From: an uncultured Actinomycetota bacterium
GTDB lineage: Bacteria; Actinomycetota; Actinomycetes; Mycobacteriales; CADCTP01
Assembly (NCBI GenBank): GCA_963728945.1
Contig: CAVSMA010000002.1
Location: 1,776,243 to 1,840,242 of the forward strand
Length of the DNA: 64,000 nt
Direction: 5' to 3'
Shown: piece by piece, positions 25,566-38,947 of the stretch
Layout of the letters: every line of letters starts with the position of its first letter
How positions within the stretch are numbered: position 1 is the stretch's first letter
Notes under the pieces: model-generated
Told to the model about the DNA's origin: nothing
The model's input: the letters and a program-made list of their open reading frames with translations, nothing else
The model's database searches: none
Translations under genes and position numbers: made by a program

Positions 25566-26393
25566 CTACCCGGTCATCCGGTGCCGGATCGCGTCCAGCC
25601 GGGACGCCACGCTGCCGTCGATGACCTCGTCGTTCACCCGGACGACCAGGCCGCCGAGCAGCGCCGGGTCGACCGTGACCTGCAGCGAGATCTGCCGCCC
25701 GTAGACCCGGGCCAGGGCCGCGGCGAGCCGGCGCTCCTGCTGGTCGGTCAGCGCCGCGGGCGCGGTCACGTACGCCACGTACCGCTCGCGGCGGGCGGCC
25801 GCGAGCTCGACCAGCTCCGTCACCGCCCGCTCGAGGCCGTGCCCGCGCGGGGCCCGGACGGCGTGCTCGAGCAGCTGCCGGGTCGTGCCGTCGACCCGCT
25901 CACCGACCAGCCGGTCCAGCAGGCCGACCTTGCGGTCGGTCGGTGCCAGCGGGTCCTCCAGCGCGAGCAGCAGGCGCGGCTCGCCGTCGAGGATCCGGCC
26001 GAACCGGAACAGCTGGTCCTCGACGTCGTCGAGGGTGCCGGCGCGCTCGGCGATGCCGAGCACGGCCCGGCGGCTGAGCGCCTGCACGGCGTCGGCCAGG
26101 TCGCCGGGACGGGACCAGCGCTCGCGCACCAGCGGCCGGAGCAGCTCAAGGGCCTGCGCGTCGAGTTGGCTGCCGAGCAGGCGGTCGAACAGGGCCTGCC
26201 GGCGGTCCGGGTCGGCCGAGGGGTCGGCCAGCGCGCGGCGCAGGCCGGCCTCGCGGTCGAGCAGCTCGGTCACCGCGAACAGCTGGTCGGCCAGCGGGCC
26301 GAGCTGATCAGCGCGCGAGCGGTCGATGATGCCGTCGAGGGCGTCGATCCCGGCGGCCAGGGTCTCCCGGCTGGCCGCCCCGGGACCGGTCAT
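25566..26393 (-). CDS. atpH: ATP synthase delta subunit (actinobacterial long form)
   Basis: LRRALADP, RWS and VDPALLGGLVVRVNDEVIDGSV; TGATG overlap with atpF. Confidence 0.95.
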   Translation of the reverse strand: MTGPGAASRETLAAGIDALDGIIDRSRADQLGPLADQLFAVTELLDREAGLRRALADPSADPDRRQALFDRLLGSQLDAQALELLRPLVRERWSRPGDLADAVQALSRRAVLGIAERAGTLDDVEDQLFRFGRILDGEPRLLLALEDPLAPTDRKVGLLDRLVGERVDGTTRQLLEHAVRAPRGHGLERAVTELVELAAARRERYVAYVTAPAALTDQQERRLAAALARVYGRQISLQVTVDPALLGGLVVRVNDEVIDGSVASRLDAIRHRMTG

Positions 26394-27481
26394 CACCGGC
26401 GGCGGCGGGAACGCCCGCCGCCCCCGGGGCCGCCGGAGCCGTCCTGCCCCGAACCACCGGACCCGCCCGCCGAACCACCGGACCCGCCCGCCGAACCACC
26501 GGACCCGCCCGCCGAACCACCGGACCCGCCGGGGGCCGAGCGGCCCGAATCCGACGCGCCGCCACCGGACCCGCCGGACCCGCCGGCCGCGCCGAGGCCG
26601 GAGCCGCCGGCGTTGGTCGCGCCGGCACCGGAGCCGCCGGAGCTGGGGCCGGGCGGGAACCCGGTCTGGCCCGCGCCGGTCGGCCCACCACCTGGTCCGA
26701 CACCGCCGTCCGAGCCACCGCCACCAGGACCACCGCTCGACGCCCCGCCGCTCGACGTCCCACCGCCGGCCGGGCTGCCGGGGGTGTCGCCGGTCGACGT
26801 GGCGCCCGACGTGCCACCGCCGGCTGAACCGCCGTCCGTGCCGCCGCCGTCCCTCGTGCCGCCGCCGTCCCTCGTGCCGCCGCCGTCCCTGCCGGCGGCC
26901 CCGGTCGTCGCGCCGCCGGCACCGACGCCGGCCGGAACGGACTGGGACATGCCGTCGAGATCGTCGAGGAACCGGTCGATCGTCCGCTGCCGCGCCGGGT
27001 CGTCGGCGAGCGTCTCGCCCACGATCCGCTCGGCCAGCCCGGTGGCCAGCGAGCCGATCTCCCCGCGCAGCTCCCGCACGACCTGCTGCCGCTGCATGGT
27101 CAGCTGTTCCTCGCCGCGGGCGACGATCCGGGCCGACTCCTCCTGCGCGGTGGTCCGCATCTCCTCGATGATCCGCTGGCCCTCGGCCCTGGCGTTGTCC
27201 CGGATCTGCGCCGCCTCGGTGCGCGCCTCGGACAGTTGCTGGCGGTATTCGGTCAGCAGCCGCTGCGCGTCGGCCTGCGCTTCCTCGGCCCGCTTGATGC
27301 CGCCTTCGATCGCGTCGCGGCGGACCTGGAAGGTCGCCTCCATCCGCGGCCAGGCGTACTTCATCAGCACGAAGACCACGATGCCGAACGTGAGCAGGCC
27401 GATGATCAGCTCGCCGCCGGCGGGGATGACCGGGTTGGGACCGGACTCTTCGGCCGGTACCGCTAGGTGGAGCGGCAGCAT
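26393..27481 (-). CDS. atpF: ATP synthase b subunit with long Gly/Ser-rich C-terminal extension
   Basis: NPVIP, TM helix, RRDAIEGG, YRQQLSEARTEA and LAERIVGE...DRFLDDL, then ~185 aa low-complexity tail. Confidence 0.92.
   Translation of the reverse strand: MLPLHLAVPAEESGPNPVIPAGGELIIGLLTFGIVVFVLMKYAWPRMEATFQVRRDAIEGGIKRAEEAQADAQRLLTEYRQQLSEARTEAAQIRDNARAEGQRIIEEMRTTAQEESARIVARGEEQLTMQRQQVVRELRGEIGSLATGLAERIVGETLADDPARQRTIDRFLDDLDGMSQSVPAGVGAGGATTGAAGRDGGGTRDGGGTRDGGGTDGGSAGGGTSGATSTGDTPGSPAGGGTSSGGASSGGPGGGGSDGGVGPGGGPTGAGQTGFPPGPSSGGSGAGATNAGGSGLGAAGGSGGSGGGASDSGRSAPGGSGGSAGGSGGSAGGSGGSAGGSGGSGQDGSGGPGGGGRSRRRR
26449..26530. repeat. 21-bp tandem repeat (CCGAACCACCGGACCCGCCCG, ~4 copies) encoding GGSGGSA in the atpF tail
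   Basis: Units start at 26449, 26470, 26491 and 26512. Confidence 0.9.
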
Positions 27482-30679: not shown

Positions 30680-31942
30680 CTAGCCCCGCGGGTACGCCGG
30701 GTGGGCGTGGACGAGCGCGTCCACGCCCGCGGCGATCTCGGCCGTCGCCTCCGGGTCCCGCACCGCGCGGCCGATCAGCGCCGCGATCTCCTTGGCGTCG
30801 CCCTCGGTCATGCCCTGGGTGGTGATCGCCGGGGTGCCGACCCGGATGCCGGAGGCGGTCATCGGCGGCTGGGGGTCGTACGGGATCGCGTTCTTGTTCA
30901 GCGTGATCCGGGCGGCGTCGCAGCGGGCCTCCGCCTCCTTGCCGGTCACGCCGGCGCCGCGCAGGTCGATGAGCGCCAGGTGGGTGTCGGTGCCGCCGGA
31001 GACCGGCCGCATGCCCTCGGCCGCCAGCCCCGCGGCCAGCGCCTGCGCGTTGGCGATGACCTGCCGCGCGTAGGTCTGGTACGCCGGCTGCATGGCCTCC
31101 TTGAGCGCCACCGCCTTGGCCGCCACCGAGTGCATCAGCGGGCCGCCCTGGGTGAACGGGAAGACCGCCTTGTCGATCGCCTTCGCCATGTCTTCCCGGC
31201 AGACGATCATGCCGCCGCGCGGGCCGCGCAGCACCTTGTGCGTGGTGAAGGTGACGACGTCCGCGTACGGCACCGGGGACGGGATCGCCTTGCCGGCGAC
31301 CAGGCCGATGAAGTGGGCCGCGTCGACCACGAGCTTGGCGTCGACCTCGTCGGCGATGCTGCGGAAGGCGGCGAAGTCGATCAGTCGCGGGTAGGCCGTG
31401 GCGCCGCAGATGATCATCTTCGGCCGGTGCTCCCGGGCCAGGTCGCGCACCTCGTCGTAGTCGATCAGCTCGGAGTCCTCGCGCACGCCGTAGGACACCA
31501 TCGTGAACCACTTGCCGGAGAAGTTGACCTTGGAGCCGTGCGTCAGGTGGCCGCCGTGGGGCAGCGACATCGCGAGCACCGTGTCGCCGGGCTGGCAGAT
31601 CGCCGCGTATGCCGCGAGGTTCGCGCTGGCGCCCGAGTGCGGCTGCAGGTTGGCGTGCTCGGCGCCGAACAGCTCCTTGGCCCGGGCGATGCCGATCTCC
31701 TCGGCCTGGTCGACGACCTGGCAACCACCGTAGTAACGGCGGCCCGGGTATCCCTCGGCATACTTGTTCGACAGCGTCGAGCCGAGCGCGGCCAGCACCG
31801 CGGGCGAGGTGAAGTTTTCGCTGGCGATCAGTTGCAGGCCGCTGCGCAGCCGGTCAAGCTCGCCGAGCACCACGCCGGCGATCTCGGGATCCTCCGCCTG
31901 CAGAGCATCGAAATCGGGCCCCCAGAAGGGCGTGCTGCTCAT
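30680..31942 (-). CDS. glyA: Serine hydroxymethyltransferase
   Basis: LIASENF, NKYAEGYPGRRYYGG and TTHKVLRGPRGG. Confidence 0.98.
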   Translation of the reverse strand: MSSTPFWGPDFDALQAEDPEIAGVVLGELDRLRSGLQLIASENFTSPAVLAALGSTLSNKYAEGYPGRRYYGGCQVVDQAEEIGIARAKELFGAEHANLQPHSGASANLAAYAAICQPGDTVLAMSLPHGGHLTHGSKVNFSGKWFTMVSYGVREDSELIDYDEVRDLAREHRPKMIICGATAYPRLIDFAAFRSIADEVDAKLVVDAAHFIGLVAGKAIPSPVPYADVVTFTTHKVLRGPRGGMIVCREDMAKAIDKAVFPFTQGGPLMHSVAAKAVALKEAMQPAYQTYARQVIANAQALAAGLAAEGMRPVSGGTDTHLALIDLRGAGVTGKEAEARCDAARITLNKNAIPYDPQPPMTASGIRVGTPAITTQGMTEGDAKEIAALIGRAVRDPEATAEIAAGVDALVHAHPAYPRG

Positions 31943-32637
31943 CGGACGACTCCTCGCGCGGTTCGGTGGCGGCTCCACTGTAGGGCCCGGACGACACCGG
32001 GGACCCTATCCCGGCGGCCCCGGCGAGCCGGCGCCGGTCCCGCGACGGCGTCCAGCAGGAACTCGACCCAGAGCGCCGTCTGGCCCACCATGTCCCGCTG
32101 CGCCGGGTCGTTGTCGGTCGGGTCGTCCAGGTCGTAGGCATCGGAGACGTACGGCATGCCGGGTCGCAGCCGCTGCTCGCGCAGCGTGCTGGCCCGGTCG
32201 ACCAGCGCCCGCAGCCGCTGGCCGGCGGAGCGGGCGGGCAGGTCGTCCGCCGGGATGGCCTCGGTCAGCCGGACCAGCTCGCCGAGGGTGAAGGCGCGGT
32301 GCCGGGAGGCCAGCTGGAACCGCCACACCGCCCGGACGTGCTCGGCGGTCGACCCGATGAGCAGGTCGGCGCCGGCCACCGCCTCCGGGGTCAGCCGGGT
32401 GGACCGGGCGGCGGCCACGTCGGCCGGGGGGACGCCGGCCCGGCGCAGCGCGTCGGCCGTGCCCGGCTCGACCGGCCGGTCGGGGCTGGCCCAGGTGCCG
32501 GCGCTGGCCACCACGATCTCCGCGCCGGCCGCCGCGCCCAGCCTGGCCCGCAGGCCGGCCCGCAGCAGCAGCGCCGCCGCGGGCGAACGGCAGACGTTCG
32601 CGGTGCAGACGCAGAGGACGTGTGCTGGGTCGCCCAT
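31939..32637 (-). CDS. Low-molecular-weight phosphatase / arsenate reductase family protein
   Basis: CTANVCRS P-loop, FTLGEL and DLDDP; ATGA overlap with glyA. Confidence 0.85.
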   Translation of the reverse strand: MGDPAHVLCVCTANVCRSPAAALLLRAGLRARLGAAAGAEIVVASAGTWASPDRPVEPGTADALRRAGVPPADVAAARSTRLTPEAVAGADLLIGSTAEHVRAVWRFQLASRHRAFTLGELVRLTEAIPADDLPARSAGQRLRALVDRASTLREQRLRPGMPYVSDAYDLDDPTDNDPAQRDMVGQTALWVEFLLDAVAGPAPARRGRRDRVPGVVRALQWSRHRTARGVVR

Positions 32638-32658
32638 CGGCTCAGGTTACGTCGGAAA

Positions 32659-33324
32659 TTACCTGGCCTGCCGGGGTCGGCCGCCCTCCTCCAGCTCCGG
32701 CACGACCTCCTGCAGCTGGCGCAGCGACACCTTGCCCCGCCGCAGCAGCACCGGCGTCGGCCCGGTCACGTCGACGATCGTGGACGGCGACGGGTCGATG
32801 CACGGGCCGCCGTCGAGGTAGACCGCGACCGCGTAGCCGAGCTGTTCCTGGGCGTCCTTGGCGGACAGCGGCACCCGGGTGCCGGTCCGGTTCGCGCCGG
32901 ACACGGCCAGCGGGCCGGTGCGGGCCAGCAGCTCCAGCGCGACCGGGTGCATCGGCATCCGGATCGACACGGCGCCGCGGTCGTCGCCGAGATCCCAGGC
33001 CAGCGACGGGGCGTGCTCGATCACGAGGGTCAGCGGCCCCGGCCAGAACGCCTCGACCAGCGCCCGCACCTCCGGCTGGACCAGCAGCGTCAGCCCGTCG
33101 AGGCCGGACCAGGAGCCGACCATGACCGGGATCGGCAGGTCCCGGCCGCGGCCCTTGCTGGCTGCCAGCGCGTCCACCGCGGCCGGCTGGAACGCGTCCG
33201 CGGCCAGCCCGTACGAGGCGTCCACCGGCATGACCACCAGCTCGCCGCGCCGGATCGAGTCGACCGCGGTGTCCAGCCCCTCCGCCCGCTCGACCGGATC
33301 CGCACAGTCGAAGGTCAGCGACAC
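32659..33324 (-). CDS. tsaC: Resident L-threonylcarbamoyladenylate synthase (Sua5/TsaC) with divergent active-site motifs
   Basis: KGRGRDLP, FWPGPLT, IRMP and PSTIVD present; PVDASYG replaces PTDTVYG and SGAN replaces SSAN. Confidence 0.88.
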   Translation of the reverse strand: MSLTFDCADPVERAEGLDTAVDSIRRGELVVMPVDASYGLAADAFQPAAVDALAASKGRGRDLPIPVMVGSWSGLDGLTLLVQPEVRALVEAFWPGPLTLVIEHAPSLAWDLGDDRGAVSIRMPMHPVALELLARTGPLAVSGANRTGTRVPLSAKDAQEQLGYAVAVYLDGGPCIDPSPSTIVDVTGPTPVLLRRGKVSLRQLQEVVPELEEGGRPRQAR

Positions 33325-33387
33325 GGCGTCTCCCTTGATCGTCGGGGGAAGCGGACGCCGTCCAGCCAGCTGGTCAAGGCAGACGCC

Positions 33388-34380
33388 TCAGAACGACTCG
33401 ATCGACAGGGAGGTGGTGGCCTCGGGCGGGAGGTCGGCGCCGGCGGCCAGGTAGTCCCAGGCCGCCAGGCCGATCATGGCGCCGTTGTCGGTCGACCAGC
33501 GCAGCGGCGGCAGGCTCAGCCGGACCCCGGCCTGCGCGCACAGCTCGCCGGCCGCCGCCCGCAGCTGCGGGCTGGCCGCCACCCCGCCGACGATGACCAG
33601 GCACTCGGACGGCTGCTCGGCCAGCGCCCGGCGGCACTTGGCCACCAGCACCTCGAGCACCGCGGCGACGAAGCTCGCGGCCACGTCGGCCGGCGGCGCG
33701 TCCGGGTTGGCCGCGAGGAACCGCTCGACCGCGGACTTCAGCCCGGAGAACGAGAAGTTCAGCCCGTCGGTGAGCATCGGCCGCGGGAACGGGAACACCG
33801 GGTTACCGGTCGCGGCGAGCTTGTCGACCACCGGGCCGCCGGGATAGCCGAGGTCGAGCATCCGGGCGACCTTGTCGTAGGCCTCCCCCACCGAGTCGTC
33901 CACGGTGGAGCCGAGCAGCGTGATCGTCCCGGCATCGGTCATCCGGGCCAGGAACGTGTGCCCACCGGAGACCAGCAGGATGGTCGCCGGGTAGTCGACC
34001 CGGCGCTCCTCCAGGTCAGCGCTGCGCAGGTGGCCGCGCAGGTGGTTGATGCCGAGCACCGGCACGCCCCAGCCCTGGCCGAGGGCGGCCGCGGTGCTCA
34101 CGCCGACCATCAGCGAGCCGATCAGCCCCGGACCGCGGGTCACCCCGATCGCGCGCAGCGTCCGCGGGTCGACGCCGGAGTCGTCGAGCACCATCCGTAC
34201 GGTCGGCAGGATCTTGTCCACGTGCGCCCGGGACGCCATCTCCGGGTACACGCCGCCGTACCGGTTGTGCAGCGCGACCTGGGACGCGGTCGACGCGGCG
34301 ACGACCGTGCCGTCCTTGTCGACGAGCGCGACCGAGGTGTCGTCACAGGACGTCTCGATACCGAGCACGAGTTCCGTCAT
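33388..34380 (-). CDS. tsaD: tRNA N6-adenosine threonylcarbamoyltransferase TsaD (cassette copy)
   Basis: LGIETSCDDT, PEMASRAH, GPGLIGSL, NHLRGH, LLVSGGHT, GEAYDKVAR, GYPGGP, FSFSGLK and DNGAMIG. Confidence 0.95.
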   Translation of the reverse strand: MTELVLGIETSCDDTSVALVDKDGTVVAASTASQVALHNRYGGVYPEMASRAHVDKILPTVRMVLDDSGVDPRTLRAIGVTRGPGLIGSLMVGVSTAAALGQGWGVPVLGINHLRGHLRSADLEERRVDYPATILLVSGGHTFLARMTDAGTITLLGSTVDDSVGEAYDKVARMLDLGYPGGPVVDKLAATGNPVFPFPRPMLTDGLNFSFSGLKSAVERFLAANPDAPPADVAASFVAAVLEVLVAKCRRALAEQPSECLVIVGGVAASPQLRAAAGELCAQAGVRLSLPPLRWSTDNGAMIGLAAWDYLAAGADLPPEATTSLSIESF

Positions 34381-34967
34381 GCCAGCACCTTCGCGATCTG
34401 GTCGGCGGGGACGGCGCCGACCCGCTCGACCGCCGGGTTCGGCAGGTTGCAGTTCACCAGCGTGGACGGGACGGTCGCCCGCACCCCACCGTCCAGGGCC
34501 AGGTCCGGTTCGCCGTCGAGCTGGTCGAGCACCTGCCGCATCGACTCGGGCGTCTCCTGGGCGTGCAGGTTGGCGCTGGTGACGAGCAACGGGCCGACCG
34601 CGCGCAGCACCTCGAGCAGCAGCGGGTCGTCCGGGATGCGTACGGCGATCTCGTCCCGGTCGGTCAGCCACTCCGGCGCGGTCCGCTGGTCGAGGCCCAG
34701 CGCGAGGGTGAGCGGCCCGGGCGAGAACGCGGCCAGCAGCCGCTTGGCCGGCCCGGTCACGTCGGCACCCAGCTCCTCGGCCTGGTCCGGCGACGCCACC
34801 ATGATCGGCAGGTTGCGGGACAGCGGCCGGCGCTTCATTGCGAACAGCCGCGGCAGCGCGTCCGCGCCGTGCACCGGGTGCACGGCCAGCCCATACACGG
34901 TGTCGGTCGGCAGCAGCACGATGCCGCCGCCGCACAGCGTCTCGACGACGCGCTCGGCGTCAGTCAT
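34377..34967 (-). CDS. tsaC: Second L-threonylcarbamoyladenylate synthase (TsaC/YrdC, 196 aa)
   Basis: PTDTVYGL, KRRP, PGPLT, VRIP, TSAN and PSTLV: full K-x-R...S-x-N tetrad; ATGA overlap with tsaD. Confidence 0.93.
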   Translation of the reverse strand: MTDAERVVETLCGGGIVLLPTDTVYGLAVHPVHGADALPRLFAMKRRPLSRNLPIMVASPDQAEELGADVTGPAKRLLAAFSPGPLTLALGLDQRTAPEWLTDRDEIAVRIPDDPLLLEVLRAVGPLLVTSANLHAQETPESMRQVLDQLDGEPDLALDGGVRATVPSTLVNCNLPNPAVERVGAVPADQIAKVLA

Positions 34968-35622
34968 CGGTCCCTCCGAACAGCGGGGACTGCTCGGTGA
35001 GCGGCGTCGCGGCGCGCTCCCGGGTCGGGTCGACGGTCGGGCGCCCGGCCGTCACCCAGCGCAGGACGCGTACGTCCGGGCCGGCGATGCCGGAATCCTT
35101 GACCAGCACGCCGGGCAGCAAGCCGGGAAGCAGGTCGGCGACCTCGCCGCGGAAGTCGCCGGCCAGCACGACCTCCGGCCCGCTCACCAGCCGCAGCACC
35201 TCGGCCAGCGGCCCGTGCCGGTAGGTGGCGGCGCCGGCGGCGAACCAGCCCGCGTACGCCCGGCCGGCGCCGGCGTTGCGCAGGCAGAGCACCGGCACCG
35301 CCGGGCCGGCCTGCGCGGCCATCAGCTCCAGCGAGTTCGCGGTGGCGACGCCGGCGCCGAGGGCGAACGCGAGCCCGTTGCCGTACGCCACGCCGGTGCG
35401 GACCGCGGTGAGGTTGCCCGGCCCGACGTCCACGGCGATGCGGGTGACGTCGGCGAACGACCGGCCGGCGTCCGCCAGCAGCCCGCCGACCAGCCCGGGC
35501 AGGTCCCGCTGCGCCGGCGGCACCCCGACCAGCGCGCGGCTGGCCAGCACGTCGGTGTCGTCCTCGGTGGCGAGCGCGGCGGCGAAGGTGGCGGTGGAGG
35601 TCTCCAGGGCCAGCGTGAGCAT
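34960..35622 (-). CDS. tsaB: TsaB (YeaZ)-like dimerisation subunit, divergent
   Basis: LALETST, IAVDVGPGNLTAVRTG (cf. GPGSFTGLRIG), GLAFAL and NSLE; overlaps both neighbours. Confidence 0.85.
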   Translation of the reverse strand: MLTLALETSTATFAAALATEDDTDVLASRALVGVPPAQRDLPGLVGGLLADAGRSFADVTRIAVDVGPGNLTAVRTGVAYGNGLAFALGAGVATANSLELMAAQAGPAVPVLCLRNAGAGRAYAGWFAAGAATYRHGPLAEVLRLVSGPEVVLAGDFRGEVADLLPGLLPGVLVKDSGIAGPDVRVLRWVTAGRPTVDPTRERAATPLTEQSPLFGGTDD

Positions 35623-36113
35623 CAGGCGGCCTCGGCCAGCAGCGCGGTCTCGATCGCCTCCGGCACGCCGGACCAGCGGGCGCCGTGTCCGGTGATCGTG
35701 ATCGTCCGCTGCTGCTCGTCGTCCGGATCGGCGGTCAGCGTGACCGCGAGGTGCTCGGGCAGCTCGCTTTCGACCAGCCCGCCCCACTCGACCAGCGTCA
35801 CCGACTCGGCCAGGTGCTCCGCCAGGCCGAGGTCGCGGAACTCGGCCACGCCGGTCAGCCGGTAGGTGTCGATGTGCAGCACCGGCACCCGGCCGCCGGC
35901 GTAGAACTGGGCCAGCATGAACGTCGGGCTGGTCACCTGGTCGGCCGAGCCGAGCGCGGCCGCCGCCCCCGCCACGAACGTGGTCTTGCCGGCGGCCAGC
36001 TCGCCGTGCAGCAGGACGACGTCTCCGGCCCGGAGCTGCCCGGCGACCGCGGCCGCGACGGCGGCAGTGCGCGCTGGTGACTCCGCGCCCACGCGGATGC
36101 TGTCAGTAGTCAT
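35622..36113 (-). CDS. tsaE: TsaE (YjeE) ATPase
   Basis: LHGELAAGKTT, VTSPTF, HIDTYRL and LVEWG; TGATG overlap with tsaB. Confidence 0.93.
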   Translation of the reverse strand: MTTDSIRVGAESPARTAAVAAAVAGQLRAGDVVLLHGELAAGKTTFVAGAAAALGSADQVTSPTFMLAQFYAGGRVPVLHIDTYRLTGVAEFRDLGLAEHLAESVTLVEWGGLVESELPEHLAVTLTADPDDEQQRTITITGHGARWSGVPEAIETALLAEAA

Positions 36114-36144
36114 TTCCCGGCTCTCGCTGCGTTCCGAAGGTCCG

Positions 36145-36164
36145 AGGATACGACCAGGTCTCGA
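36145..36164 (-). promoter_or_regulatory. Candidate tsaE promoter: TCGAGA-N8-TATCCT
   Basis: TANNNT -10 ~32 nt upstream of the tsaE ATG, with a TCGAG element 8 nt upstream (SARP-like spacing); no clear second repeat. Confidence 0.3.
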
Positions 36165-36261
36165 AACGGTTGCCCTAAGGGGCACTTCTGGCCCCGGCAC
36201 CAACTTATCGGCCTTCCGGAGCGTCCCACTGTCGACGGATTTTCTCGGGTTGGGGAGAGTC

Positions 36262-36990
36262 ATGACCGGATCCGTACGGGTCGGGGTGCTCGGGCCGCTG
36301 TCCGTGGAGGTCGATGGCCGGGCGCACGAGGCGCCGCGCGCCGAGGTGGTCCGAGGACTGCTCGGCGTGCTGCTGCTGGCCGGCCGGGAGCCGCTGTCCG
36401 TGGAGCGGCTCATCCCGTTGGTGTGGGACGACCGGGCCGGGCACACCCGGCCCGCGTCGGTGCACGTCGCGGTCACGAGACTGCGCGGCTGGCTGGACGA
36501 GGCCGGGCTGGCCGCCGAGCTGCGCCGGGAGGGCTGCGGCTACCGGCTGGCGCACGAGTTCGACCTCGACCTCGACCGGGTCAGCGAGCACGGTACGGCC
36601 GAGGAGCCGGCGGCCGACCGGTGCCTGCGGCTGGCGGCCGCGCTCGCCCGCTACCGCGGGCCGGTGCTGGCCGACGTGGTCCGGCTCGGCCGGTCCGATC
36701 CGCTGGTGATCGGGGCCGAGCGGCTGGTGCTGCGGCGCTGCCTGGAGCTGGCCGACGTGGCCGAGGCGACCGGGCGGCCGGAGCTCGGCGTCGGGCCGCT
36801 GGAGACCTACGCGTCGTGTGACCCGTACGAGGAGATGGTGCAGGCGCGGCTGGTCGAGCTGCTCGCCGAGGCCGGGCGCCCGGAGACGGCCCGGCGGCGA
36901 TACGAGCAGGCCAGGGCGCTGCTGGCGGCGGAGCTCGGCGTCCCGCCCTGCCCGCGGCTGCGCCGGGCCGGCGGCAAGGTTGCCGCCTAG
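36262..36990 (+). CDS. Small SARP/AfsR-family transcriptional activator (winged HTH + BTAD)
   Basis: VGVLGPLSV, LLGVLLL, LIPLVW, VHVAVTRLR, GYRL, ALARYRGPVLAD, DPYEE and LAAELGVPP. Confidence 0.88.
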   Translation: MTGSVRVGVLGPLSVEVDGRAHEAPRAEVVRGLLGVLLLAGREPLSVERLIPLVWDDRAGHTRPASVHVAVTRLRGWLDEAGLAAELRREGCGYRLAHEFDLDLDRVSEHGTAEEPAADRCLRLAAALARYRGPVLADVVRLGRSDPLVIGAERLVLRRCLELADVAEATGRPELGVGPLETYASCDPYEEMVQARLVELLAEAGRPETARRRYEQARALLAAELGVPPCPRLRRAGGKVAA

Positions 36991-37844
36991 GTCACCCCTA
37001 CCGGCCGCCGCCCGGGCCGGTCCGCCGGCCGCCGCGCGGTGGTGAAGCGCGGCCGGCCGGCCAGGTCGGGGTGGTCACGCACCTCGGCCCAGTGCCGGAA
37101 CACCGCCGGCACCGACTCGCCCTGCACGTCCGCGTGCTCGACCGCGACCAGTCCGCCGGGCTTGAGCAGCCGGGCCGCGGCCCGCTCGACCGCCCGCACG
37201 GCGACCAGCCCGTCCTCGCCGCCCCACAGCGCCGCCGGCGGGTCGTGCTCGGCCACCTCGCGCTCGATCCGCGCCCCGACCGGAATGTACGGCGGGTTCG
37301 CGGTGACCAGGTCGACCGTGCCGGCCAGGTCGGCGAGCAGGGTGGGGTCGGCCACGTCGCCCCGGTGCAGCGCGACCGGCAGGCCGGTCGCCGCCACGTT
37401 GCGGGCCGCCCAGGCCAGCGCGTGCTCCTCCAACTCGGCCGCGTGCACGGTGACGTCGGCCGCCTCGTCGGCGAGGGCGAGCGCGATCGCGGCCGAGCCC
37501 GCGCACAGGTCGACGACCACGTCACCGGGCCGGAGCCGGGCCAGCGCCCAGTCGACCAGCACCTCGGTCTCCGGCCGGGGCACGAACACGCCGGGGCCGA
37601 CGGCGAGGTCGAGCCGCCGGAACCCGGCCACCCCGGTCAGGTGCTGCAGCGGCACCCTGGCCGCCCGCTGCTCGACCAGCTCGGCGTAGCGGCCGGCGGC
37701 CTCGGCCGGCAGCCGGTCCAGGAGCACCAGCCGGGACCGGGACAGCCCGAGCGCGTGCGCGGCCAGCTCCTCGGCGTCGTGCCGGGGGCTGGCCACCCCC
37801 GCGGCGGCCAGCGTGGCCGCCGCCGCCTCAATCTCCGGCAGCAC
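36987..37844 (-). CDS. prmC: Release factor glutamine methyltransferase
   Basis: [21 protein letters not shown] and NPPY. Confidence 0.95.
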
Positions 37845-38895
37845 CAAGCAACGCTTCCGTGTCGGCCTTCTGCAGGGCCGCGATGACGTCGTCGAGGTTG
37901 CCGTCGAGCACCTGGTCGAGGTTGTAGGCCTTGTAGCCGACCCGGTGATCGGAGATCCGGTTCTCCGGGAAGTTGTACGTGCGGACCCGCTCGCTGCGGT
38001 CGACCGTGCGGACCTGGGAGCGGCGGGCGTCGGACGCCTCCTTGTCCGCCTCCTCCTGCGCCAGCGCGAGCAGCCGGGCGCGCAGCACCCGCAGGCCGGC
38101 CTCCCGGTTCTGCAGCTGGCTCTTCTCGTTCTGCATCGACACGACGGTGCCGGTCGGGACGTGGGTGATCCGGACCGCCGAGTCGGTGGTGTTGACGCTC
38201 TGCCCGCCGGGCCCGGACGAACGGTAGACGTCGATGCGCAGGTCGGCCGGGTCGATCTGGACGTCGACCTCCTCCGCCTCGGGCAGCACGAGCACGCCCG
38301 CGGCGCTGGTGTGGATGCGCCCCTGCGACTCGGTCGCCGGCACCCGCTGCACCCGGTGCACACCGCCCTCGTACTTGAGCTGGCGCCACACACCGGCGTC
38401 CGACCGGCCGCGGACCGCCACCGTCACGTCCTTGTAGCCGCCGAGGTCGGACTGCTCGGCGTCGAGGATCTCGGTCTTCCAGCCCTGCCGCTCGGCGTGG
38501 CGCAGGTACATCCGGAGCAGGTCGCCGGCGAACAGCGCCGACTCCTCGCCGCCCTCGCCGGCCTTGATCTGCAGGATCACGTCCTTGCCGTCGTTGGGGT
38601 CGCGCGGCACCAGCAGCTCGCGCAGCTTGTCCTGCAGCGCGCCCTCGCGGGTGGCCAGCTCGGTCGCCTCCGCGGCGAACGACTGGTCCTCGCCGGCCAG
38701 CTCGCGGGCCGTGGCCAGGTCGCCCTGGGTGGTCTCGAGCTGGTGCGCGGTCTCCGCGATCCGGGACAGCTCCGCGTACCGGCGGCCGAGCCGGCGGGCC
38801 AGCGCCTGGTCGGCGTGCACGGACGGGTCGGCGAGCTTGCGCTCCAGCTCGGCGTGCTCGGCCAGCAGCGCGGGCAGGCTCTCCGGGGTGGTCAT
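37828..38895 (-). CDS. prfA: Peptide chain release factor 1
   Basis: [26 protein letters not shown] and RTYNFPENR. Confidence 0.98.
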
Positions 38896-38914
38896 CGTGG
38901 TCTCCTGACAACGA

Positions 38915-38947
38915 ACGACGCCCACCCCGCGATGGGGTGGGCGTCGT
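38915..38947 (-). terminator. Intrinsic-terminator-like hairpin after rpmE
   Basis: 14-bp perfect stem ACGACGCCCACCCC/GGGGTGGGCGTCGT with 5-nt loop. Confidence 0.75.

Follow-up and report, generated by a model that had tools for sequence, protein, structure and literature searches.

The window analysed here is a stretch of 64,000 nt from an uncultured Actinomycetota bacterium (GenBank assembly GCA_963728945.1, contig CAVSMA010000002.1, positions 1,776,243 to 1,840,242), and it holds two genes of the TsaC family, which is named for L-threonylcarbamoyladenylate (TC-AMP) synthesis in the pathway to N6-threonylcarbamoyladenosine (t6A). The synthesis of t6A is found universally, and TsaC, recognised by a Lys-Arg-Ser-Asn (KRSN) tetrad, K-x-R...S-x-N, counts as an enzyme with a single job. 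The first gene, linked to prfA and prmC and located at 32659..33324 on the minus strand, is called the resident below, and the second belongs to a tsaE-tsaB-tsaC-tsaD operon at 33388..36113, called the module. Loss of the tetrad in the resident tracks the presence of another TsaC in the genome. It is more than chance, because S143 is replaced in 8/8 module genomes (own genome included) against 0/26 relatives with a single TsaC. The reading that we favour, with modest confidence, is that the resident is a TsaC derivative that has very weak catalysis or none, and that it is kept for some role apart from making TC-AMP.

The resident reads P33-V-D-A-S-Y-G39 and A140-V-S-G-A-N145, whereas the module copy reads PTDTVYG and VTSAN. 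It keeps K57-G-R59, R122-M-P124 and P180-S-T182 and is full length, and the codons behind this contrast, which the first-pass annotation had pointed out, were confirmed (V34 = GTG, 33225-33223; A36 = GCC, 33219-33217; S37 = TCG, 33216-33214). T34V and V37S need two nucleotide changes each. Resident and module TsaC are 34% identical over 189 aa. Both are TsaC-type rather than Sua5-type, because PF01300 is the sole Pfam match (147.2 bits for the resident, 131.4 bits for the module TsaC) and the SUA5 domain is absent; of the double name Sua5/TsaC given earlier only the second half is therefore retained. Both also score above the cut-off (123.2 bits) of the NCBIfam equivalog TIGR00057, the resident with 162.7 and the module TsaC with 139.4 bits. 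In the alignment to Pyrococcus abyssi Sua5 (Pa-Sua5), A36 stands at the site of Thr35 and G143 at that of Ser143. Thr35 of Pa-Sua5 hydrogen-bonds L-threonine and the tetrad there is K56xR58/S143xN145 (PMC6004061; here and below, papers are cited for those parts of them that were available). The alignment and this paper together back the earlier claim that the residues lost from the resident, and kept in the operon copy, contact ligands. T35, R121, S181 and R195 are the L-threonine contacts of Pa-Sua5; apart from the T35 site, occupied by A36, the remaining threonine/bicarbonate contacts are matched by R122, S181 and R195 of the resident. H67 of Pa-Sua5 is Sua5-specific, and Leu is found at the equivalent position in tetrad-intact relatives. 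A complete tetrad is the literature criterion for a functional family member (PMC4615747, PMC6004061, PMC10321239), and the resident lacks it, with K57, R59 and N145 present and Gly143 in the place of Ser. Its predicted structure (predicted local distance difference test score 87.7) superposes on Pa-Sua5 (6f89) with a template modelling (TM) score of 0.90 and a root-mean-square deviation of 1.7 Å, and the fold is predicted to be intact.

The odd motifs are not assembly errors. Six other genomes of the genus carry altered motifs as well (PVDASYG with SGAN, and PVDASYG with SAAN in G009). Contigs from four other public runs, at about 98% identity, cover codons 34, 36, 37 and 143 and differ at none of them among the differences listed, beyond which there are 97 further ones. 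Codon errors, the case that the first-pass annotation had set against itself, were thus not encountered.

The set of relatives comprised 41 genomes (own genome plus 40), and the resident ortholog was found in 40, the one without it being G010 (62% complete); its synteny with prfA and prmC was found in 13 relatives. The module lies beside the resident in eight genomes (G000, G001, G003, G004, G006, G009, G011 and G012), and the tetrad Ser has become Gly in seven of them and Ala in G009. PVDASYG is present in all 7 module genomes with the N-terminus read. The 26 relatives with a single TsaC-type gene, one of which (G022) is an unpublished genome and some of which also carry a tetrad-less YciO-type gene, all have an intact tetrad with KxR, SSAN (TSSAN in G014) and PTDT(V/L)YG. 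Another TsaC/Sua5-type gene without the module occurs in six genomes. In G008, G013 and G015 it is a tetrad-intact gene of a third TsaC type, which lies next to the resident in divergent orientation; the tetrad of these residents is intact too, but their PTxT motifs are PTDASYG, PADASYG and PADTSYG, respectively. G031 and G025 have a Sua5-type copy at another place in the genome and residents with RxG...AAN and LxG...TAR; the sixth genome, G040, is discussed below. The same substitutions in a genome where the resident is the sole tsaC, which the first-pass annotation had asked to look for, were not seen: changes of PTDT in module-free genomes are those of G008, G013 and G015, each with a neighbouring tetrad-bearing TsaC-type gene. 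A check that was fixed before the sequences were read gave a broken tetrad in 2/3 further genomes with a second Sua5-type copy and in 0/7 single-copy genomes.

V37S recurs in the module-bearing group (group A), G008, G013, G015, Actinomycetospora and locus L103; T36A and V37S occur together in group A, G008 and G013, while G015 has V37S with T34A. By comparison of segment identities with the neighbouring paralog, PTDASYG of G008 may have arisen by convergence or by short-tract recombination within the family. The third TsaC paralogs of G008, G013 and G015 (L039:2978-3544 (-), L041:6775-7422 (-) and L049:8115-8684 (+)) show the motifs PTETG[YH]LL and TATSLNRS with KxR/SxN intact; their best solved relative is Thermotoga maritima TsaC2, and their hosts are module-free and have a canonical tsaD elsewhere.

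Beyond these relatives, the tetrad of the module-adjacent resident is broken in 25/25 other actinobacterial cases. The substitutions differ (S to G, A or M; N to K or S; K to R; R to V, Q, G or C), as do the motifs of the lineages: TGAN in Actinomycetospora, SAAN in Catenuloplanes, RxV with TAAN in Actinoplanes, SMAN or LMAN in Pseudonocardiales, SMAS in Labedaea, and SSAK or SSAS with RxQ, RxG, RxC or KxV in Streptosporangiaceae. The residents of loci L099 and L175 are also tetrad-broken. On a quick tree, broken residents fall in at least five separate places within the resident clade (71 rows; Shimodaira-Hasegawa-like approximate likelihood ratio test, SH-aLRT, 95).

The positions that changed were compared between 26 non-redundant intact and 13 non-redundant broken orthologs. 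Of 69 positions conserved at 90% or more among the intact orthologs, the broken ones retain 49, with P33, Y38, G39, R122, P124, S181 and R195 kept at 100%. The 20 relaxed positions include the tetrad itself (K57 kept in 62%, R59 in 54%, S143 in 31% and N145 in 54%), G60, M63, S142 and P150, which with the tetrad residues lie in the two phosphate loops, and T34 and T36 of PTxT. The loss is thus concentrated at the nucleotide/pyrophosphate site and in part of the PTxT strand; the predicted fold is kept, as is the remainder of the amino-acid pocket. Within the core clade, 23 positions separate the resident from all module-free relatives read, among them 34, 41, 56, 65, 68, 120, 121, 143 and 149-153.

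Rates of nonsynonymous and synonymous change (dN, dS) were calculated pairwise by the Nei-Gojobori method (NG86), and branch values by a least-squares fit on a species tree of glyA and wecA, on which the module genomes are monophyletic. Resident dN/dS within the core clade is 0.27-0.36 (prmC 0.29-0.40, phosphatase gene 0.14-0.43), except for 4 pairs among G000, G012, G001, G004 and G003 that lie below this range (G004-G003 = 0.20), and it is 0.21-0.34 among G002, G005, G007 and G008. Pairs that cross the branch of module gain have 0.53-0.91 for the resident and 0.15-0.51 for controls. The branch fit gives a resident stem dN of 0.026 and 0.064 on two branches, five control genes having 0-0.03 per branch (at most 0.030 summed), and tip values of 0.26-0.40; dS on the short stem branches is too noisy for a claim of omega above 1. 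In Actinomycetospora (12 genomes, 66 pairs) the median dN/dS is 0.17 for the resident with TGAN, 0.16 for the module TsaC, 0.21 for TsaD, 0.17 for prfA and 0.25 for prmC. By these values, amino-acid changes came in a burst around the acquisition of the module, and normal purifying selection followed. The earlier idea of relaxed selection after the arrival of the cassette thus holds as far as the change maps to the branch of operon gain, but not as ongoing decay, since dN/dS resembles that of prmC and the phosphatase gene here and is lower still in Actinomycetospora. Positive selection on the stem was also considered; the McDonald-Kreitman-like table was rejected as a test, because wecA and prfA show a similar excess of fixed nonsynonymous changes, and the burst on the stem is accordingly not taken for positive selection.

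The genome context indicates where TC-AMP and t6A synthesis would now reside. The own genome (apparently metagenome-assembled, 5.35 Mb in 6 contigs, 90.65% complete) has two PF01300 genes and a single copy each of TsaD, TsaB and TsaE, every one at this locus, and the module is the t6A machinery of the organism, with no other copy at this completeness. All four module proteins pass the cut-offs of their NCBIfam equivalogs (TIGR03723 369.4, TIGR03725 80.1, TIGR00150 94.3, TIGR00057 139.4). H113, H117 and D298 of TsaD are invariant across 17 aligned TsaDs, and K45, R47, T130, S131 and N133 of the module TsaC across 15 aligned sequences. The native order, seen in G002 of the same genus, is UDG-tsaE-x-tsaB-rimI-tsaD-x-ECF sigma (UDG, uracil-DNA glycosylase; ECF, extracytoplasmic function), about 700 kb away from tsaC. 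At C4:834500-839000 the own genome has a scar of this arrangement, in which UDG, x, rimI (75% identity) and the sigma factor are kept and tsaE, tsaB and tsaD are gone, as judged by blastn and a four-protein tblastn. In this scar (L160) a rimI-like acetyltransferase gene of the GNAT family (L160:1709-2422 (-)) and an unknown gene stand between the UDG-family gene and the ECF sigma factor, and one further unknown gene of G002 is also missing. Searched against the own genome, the G002 proteins match only module genes (TsaD 46.6%, TsaE 43.5%), TsaB giving nothing beyond a paralogous match. The module TsaD is 46-47% identical to TsaD of the same-genus G002 and G008 and of the same-family G013, and the flanking glyA, wecA and prfA are 87-90% identical to those of G002 and G008. 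Composition gives no transfer signal, as overall and third-position G+C of the module equal those of its flanks. Because the module TsaD, TsaB and TsaE are sole copies and the native genes are deleted, the module is a xenologous replacement of the t6A pathway and not an addition, and the picture in the first-pass annotation of a cassette placed beside a resident pathway had to be given up.

A scan of one genome per species found at least 597 stretches that fit the module pattern, 555 of them encoding a protein related to the module TsaC; the analysis covered the best 80 loci. Among these 80, tsaD follows tsaC in 78 (the remaining two are cut off by the end of the contig), tsaE occurs in 77, tsaB in 75 and the colinear order tsaE-tsaB-tsaC-tsaD in 71; their TsaD proteins are 56-94% (median 68%) identical to the module TsaD of the window. 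Going by record titles, the hosts of the best 80 include Pseudonocardiales, Actinomycetospora, Catenuloplanes, Actinoplanes, Labedaea, Streptosporangiaceae, Pyrinomonadaceae along with further Acidobacteriota, Caulobacter ginsengisoli, Celeribacter, Yoonia, Rhizobiaceae, Lewinella, Flavobacterium and Chromatiaceae. The module TsaCs form one clade (28 rows, SH-aLRT 100, quick tree) apart from the residents. We checked PF01300 content in 10 module genomes besides our own and TsaD/TsaB in five. Module TsaD and TsaB are the sole copies in 5/5, and the module TsaC is the sole PF01300 gene in 3/4 non-actinobacterial genomes (C. ginsengisoli, an Acidobacteriota metagenome-assembled genome (MAG) and Celeribacter); because of these three, the module TsaC is presumed to be a working TC-AMP synthase. 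The complete t6A pathway thus appears, from gene content, to move between phyla as a four-gene operon that displaces native genes. No description of such a tsaEBCD module displacing native genes, and no paper on a tsaEBCD operon or on horizontal transfer of one, was found in the literature listings and abstracts covered (supplements unopened, subscription journals outside the scope). In some modules, a further PF01300 gene that lacks the tetrad lies between tsaB and tsaC (L065:5376-5972 in a Labedaea MAG, L096:4698-5300 in an Actinomycetota MAG, and L116 in a Flavobacterium MAG), and the Flavobacterium locus (L116; 5213-5938; 3525-4094) has another PF01300 gene ahead of tsaE, hence three family members per operon.

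The resident is operon-linked to the module tsaD, tied to it by translation or transcription, as had been proposed from its position 63 bp downstream. The gap of 63 nt is 67 nt in G004, 146 nt in G012 and 1 nt in G001, and it is replaced by a stop/start overlap (TGATG, -1 nt) in G003 and G009. The ribosome-binding-site-like AAGGGAGA ahead of the resident is conserved. A consensus scan of 31800-37200 gave no terminator-like site, the tsaD-resident spacer included, and no promoter consensus, the scan being uninformative for promoters in an actinobacterium of 73% G+C. Contigs of RNA libraries span the tsaD-resident junction in three runs (X15, 33194-34347; X16, 33264-34275; X17, 32833-33563); they come from four rhizosphere metatranscriptome runs, are about 98% identical to the locus and weakly suggest cotranscription, a contig not being a transcript and carry-over of DNA being possible. 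The start codon of the resident (33324) is GTG here and TTG in the contigs of all four RNA-library runs, G012 and G004, always a usual bacterial start.

Comparison of genomes shows the following course of events. The resident is the vertically inherited, prfA-prmC-linked actinobacterial TsaC, beside which an ancestor of the clade acquired a complete tsaE-tsaB-tsaC-tsaD module. Native tsaE, tsaB and tsaD were later deleted, and the module TsaC took over TC-AMP synthesis. The resident, thus freed, lost, as its sequence shows, the tetrad Ser, Met63 of the phosphate loop and both PTxT threonines, and was kept at full length under purifying selection, with its predicted fold intact, R122, S181 and R195 of its threonine pocket invariant, and a tie to tsaD. 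It may still bind a threonine-like ligand and/or RNA by the remodelled pocket, and its role could be one that the ancestral TsaC had besides TC-AMP synthesis, possibly accessory to the t6A machinery. The tetrad binds ATP, and activity cannot do without it (PMC6004061), and mutagenesis found K50 and R52 essential (PMC2685093). Because the tetrad is published as essential and is invariant wherever the gene is the sole TsaC, we infer that the substitutions abolish or strongly reduce TC-AMP synthesis by the resident.

Several points weigh against this proposal. The change of Ser to Gly keeps the backbone, whose amide at the tetrad Ser helps to hold bicarbonate in Pa-Sua5 (PMC6004061), and K57, R59 and N145 remain; the resident could still make TC-AMP at a useful rate, because Gly keeps the backbone and no report of mutagenesis of the tetrad Ser was found in the literature available, nor any Sua5 tetrad mutants in the available parts of PMC3695523. 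G040, with a second Sua5-type copy, has an unaltered resident. In the module genome G048 the resident keeps KGR and TSAN and is split into two frames (L177, L171; in the place of L060:4190-4811), being either a pseudogene or the product of a long-read indel error. Native tsaC is wholly lost in the non-actinobacterial module genomes, which means that a second role, if there is one, does not hold everywhere. Related genomes are not independent of each other, and 41 genomes with 80 loci picked by similarity to the module make up a modest sample. Finally, the excess of fixed nonsynonymous over synonymous changes in the resident (27:4; polymorphic 103:128) is marginal against pooled controls (83:39, p = 0.04).

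Foremost among the other explanations is that the resident is a working, redundant TC-AMP synthase, in which S143G, T36A and T34V only lower efficiency and two TsaCs feed one TsaBDE. We regard this as unlikely, if worth keeping in mind. All of K57, R59, N145, R122, S181 and R195 are present, the TIGR00057 score is above its cut-off, purifying selection is ongoing, the gene shares an operon with tsaD, and TsaC enzymes are promiscuous and robust (PMC7430679). However, the tetrad Ser is invariant in every single-copy relative and throughout the 15 aligned module TsaCs, the changes extend to M63 and to the loop that follows SxN, other lineages in the same situation have lost K, R or N, which means that TC-AMP synthesis by the resident is dispensable, and co-occurrence of two active variants is described as rare and unstable (PMC10321239). 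The recurrence of these losses bears also on the suggestion, made in the first-pass annotation, that the resident has changed its amino-acid specificity and supplies TsaD with a different carbamoyl-adenylate as a fifth catalytic gene of the operon. The pocket is indeed remodelled and not abandoned, with T36A/V37S recurrent and R122, S181 and R195 kept, and the gene is coupled to tsaD. The repeated losses, however, strike the ATP/pyrophosphate site (K, R, S, N and M63) that any adenylate-forming reaction needs, and the substitutions differ by lineage, unlike convergence on one new chemistry. In addition, TsaD takes only TC-AMP or hydroxynorvalylcarbamoyl-AMP (hnC-AMP), and the amino acid used by TsaC must have a beta-hydroxy group (PMC7430679), so that we hold a new specificity to be rather improbable.

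A resident that is on its way to loss, under relaxed selection and with no function left, is less probable again. Its active-site residues did go after a functional replacement had arrived, the native gene is absent from the three non-actinobacterial genomes in which the module TsaC stands alone, and there is the split gene of G048. On the other side, the gene is full length wherever it was read whole, its dN/dS matches that of neighbouring housekeeping genes here and in Actinomycetospora, 49/69 conserved positions are kept across at least five lineages, and the ribosome-binding site and the stop/start overlap are conserved. That a chimeric bin or miscalled bases produced the motifs or the juxtaposition can practically be dismissed: the genome is, to judge from the names of near relatives, metagenome-assembled, but the same arrangement and residues recur in 7 further genomes, with contigs that reach 1.1 Mb, and contigs of the four other runs carry the region at about 98% identity.

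If, as we favour, the resident is kept for something other than TC-AMP synthesis, a broader proposal can be put forward tentatively, and with less confidence than the reading itself. The prfA-prmC-linked actinobacterial TsaC may have a second, TC-AMP-independent function and may lose its tetrad whenever another synthase is present, which would have happened at least five times; in module genomes it may be a non-catalytic fifth t6A component that binds a ligand or tRNA, a recurrent and recent re-run of the passage from TsaC to YciO. Several leads concern such a second role. TsaC binds tRNA and double-stranded RNA (PMC2685093, PMC6004061), a yrdC mutation was obtainable only in a prfA1 background (PMC2685093), and the resident is universally tied to prfA-prmC here. 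Moreover, some modules (L065, L096 and L116) have a tetrad-less PF01300 gene of their own between tsaB and tsaC, and a non-catalytic fifth component would fit these TsaC-like genes. No description of recurrent tetrad loss in retained TsaC orthologs was found in the literature available, although the PF01300 network tables of bioRxiv 10.1101/2024.07.01.601547 might already include such proteins, and the listings and abstracts covered returned no paper on Rv1301. The locus amounts to a natural experiment, in which catalysis comes from another gene and the old TsaC loses its tetrad, yet persists. If the proposal is true, it would bring out a second TsaC role long hinted at by the prfA1 suppressor and the ribosome-maturation phenotypes of yrdC (PMC2685093), provide young, datable models for the origin of YciO-type proteins, and show a complete t6A pathway moving across phyla as one four-gene operon with native genes displaced. 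For annotation, TIGR00057 scores the resident as L-threonylcarbamoyladenylate synthase, which it probably no longer is, and surveys that filter by the tetrad discard it.

Coordinates and features of the locus (positions in the window)
Feature	Position	Strand	Remarks
Resident single-domain TsaC ortholog	32659..33324	-	GTG start, 221 aa, open frame; KxR/SxN tetrad broken (S143G), PTxT altered (T34V, T36A, V37S)
PVDASYG codons V34-D35-A36-S37 of resident	33214..33225	-	read from sequence
Resident codon G143 (GGC), replacing SxN Ser of tetrad	32896..32898	-	AGC in all module-free relatives read
Resident codon L63 (CTG), phosphate loop after KGR	33136..33138	-	Met63 in 27/30 tetrad-intact orthologs, 1/34 tetrad-broken
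tsaD-resident spacer, 63 nt	33325..33387	-	AAGGGAGA ribosome-binding-site-like motif 5 nt before GTG
Module tsaD	33388..34380	-	sole TsaD; H113, H117, D298 (HxxH...D) invariant; ATG overlaps module tsaC stop (ATGA)
Module tsaC	34377..34967	-	196 aa; PTDTVYG (P20-G26), V129-T-S-A-N133; K45-x-R47, T130-S131-x-N133 intact
Module tsaB	34960..35622	-	sole TsaB; divergent, PF00814 46.7 bits vs 82-94 bits in canonical relatives
Module tsaE	35622..36113	-	sole TsaE; stop overlaps tsaB start (TGATG)
SARP-type regulator (Trans_reg_C + BTAD)	35917..36990	+	divergent from module; homolog in same prmC-tsaC slot in G002, G013, G015
prfA (37828-38925) + prmC (36987-37856)	36987..38925	-	conserved synteny upstream of resident
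Low-molecular-weight phosphatase gene	31939-32637	-	starts 21 nt past resident stop; conserved downstream synteny
glyA	30680-31978	-	conserved downstream synteny

The order on the minus strand is prfA, prmC, tsaE, tsaB, tsaC, tsaD, the resident, the phosphatase gene, glyA, a wecA-like gene and the atp operon, with the divergent plus-strand regulator of the Streptomyces antibiotic regulatory protein (SARP)/BTAD type between prmC and tsaE. All junctions between module genes overlap (TGATG, 8 nt and ATGA). As listed, the regulator ORF overlaps tsaE by about 200 nt, and its true start is probably downstream of 35917. The phosphatase ORF (232 aa) has its Pfam domain match only in residues 7-123 and, as listed, overlaps the glyA start by 40 nt. 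An atpF-like ORF (26393-27481 (-), ATP synthase b subunit region) has a tail of about 200 aa that is rich in Gly/Ser/Thr, with GGSGGSAGGS-like repeats.

Comparison with known systems places the module and the resident as follows. Like the canonical tsaE-tsaB-rimI-tsaD operon, known from the alr-groEL1 operon of Mycobacterium tuberculosis (PMC5335608), the module has tsaE, tsaB and tsaD clustered and co-oriented, but tsaC takes the place of rimI, the proteins are 43-47% identical with TsaB unalignable, and the unit is common to several phyla. It also resembles TsaN, a TsaD-TsaC-SUA5-TcdA fusion (PDB 8ide, PMC10484737), in linking TC-AMP synthase and transferase in one genetic unit; TsaN, however, which occurs in giant viruses and some bacteria, is one fused protein, whereas the module consists of separate genes with overlapping stops and starts and has an extra degenerate TsaC. 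The resident recalls the eroding Sua5 of Archaeoglobi (Pichard-Kostuch et al., 2023, PMC10321239), in which substrate-contacting residues are likewise caught in mid-replacement. There, however, the SUA5 domain and linker erode in what is the sole TC-AMP synthase, and here the tetrad is struck with another enzyme present; the survey in that paper, in the parts available, discarded tetrad-less sequences and so would miss residents of this class. YciO is a tetrad-less TsaC paralog whose function is presumably RNA-related (Thiaville et al., PMC4615747; PMC2685093; bioRxiv 10.1101/2024.07.01.601547), and the resident is similarly a PF01300 protein without the complete KRSN tetrad that stands beside a presumably working TsaC, with most of the other pocket residues retained. 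The two are alike in situation and not in descent: the resident lies outside the YciO clade and is a recent TsaC-ortholog derivative, of a kind that arose several times, while the YciO-type genes of 7 relatives (PTDSC[FY]AL, IRxL, SSTLLLPG) form a separate group (SH-aLRT 99, quick tree). Closest is single-domain TsaC itself (YrdC/RimN; Escherichia coli TsaC, 1hru/2mx1; Pa-Sua5's TsaC-like domain, 6f87/6f89), with which the resident shares the PF01300 fold (TM 0.90 to 6f89), the signature Ser/Thr before SxN (S142), K57-x-R59, N145, R122, S181, R195, the prfA-prmC-tsaC synteny and a common clade with intact actinobacterial TsaCs. It departs from TsaC in having Gly for the tetrad Ser, Ala at the equivalent of Pa-Sua5 Thr35 and Val for the first PTxT Thr, and in not being the sole family member. 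By descent, then, the resident is a TsaC, and by the tetrad criterion it fails as a TC-AMP synthase.

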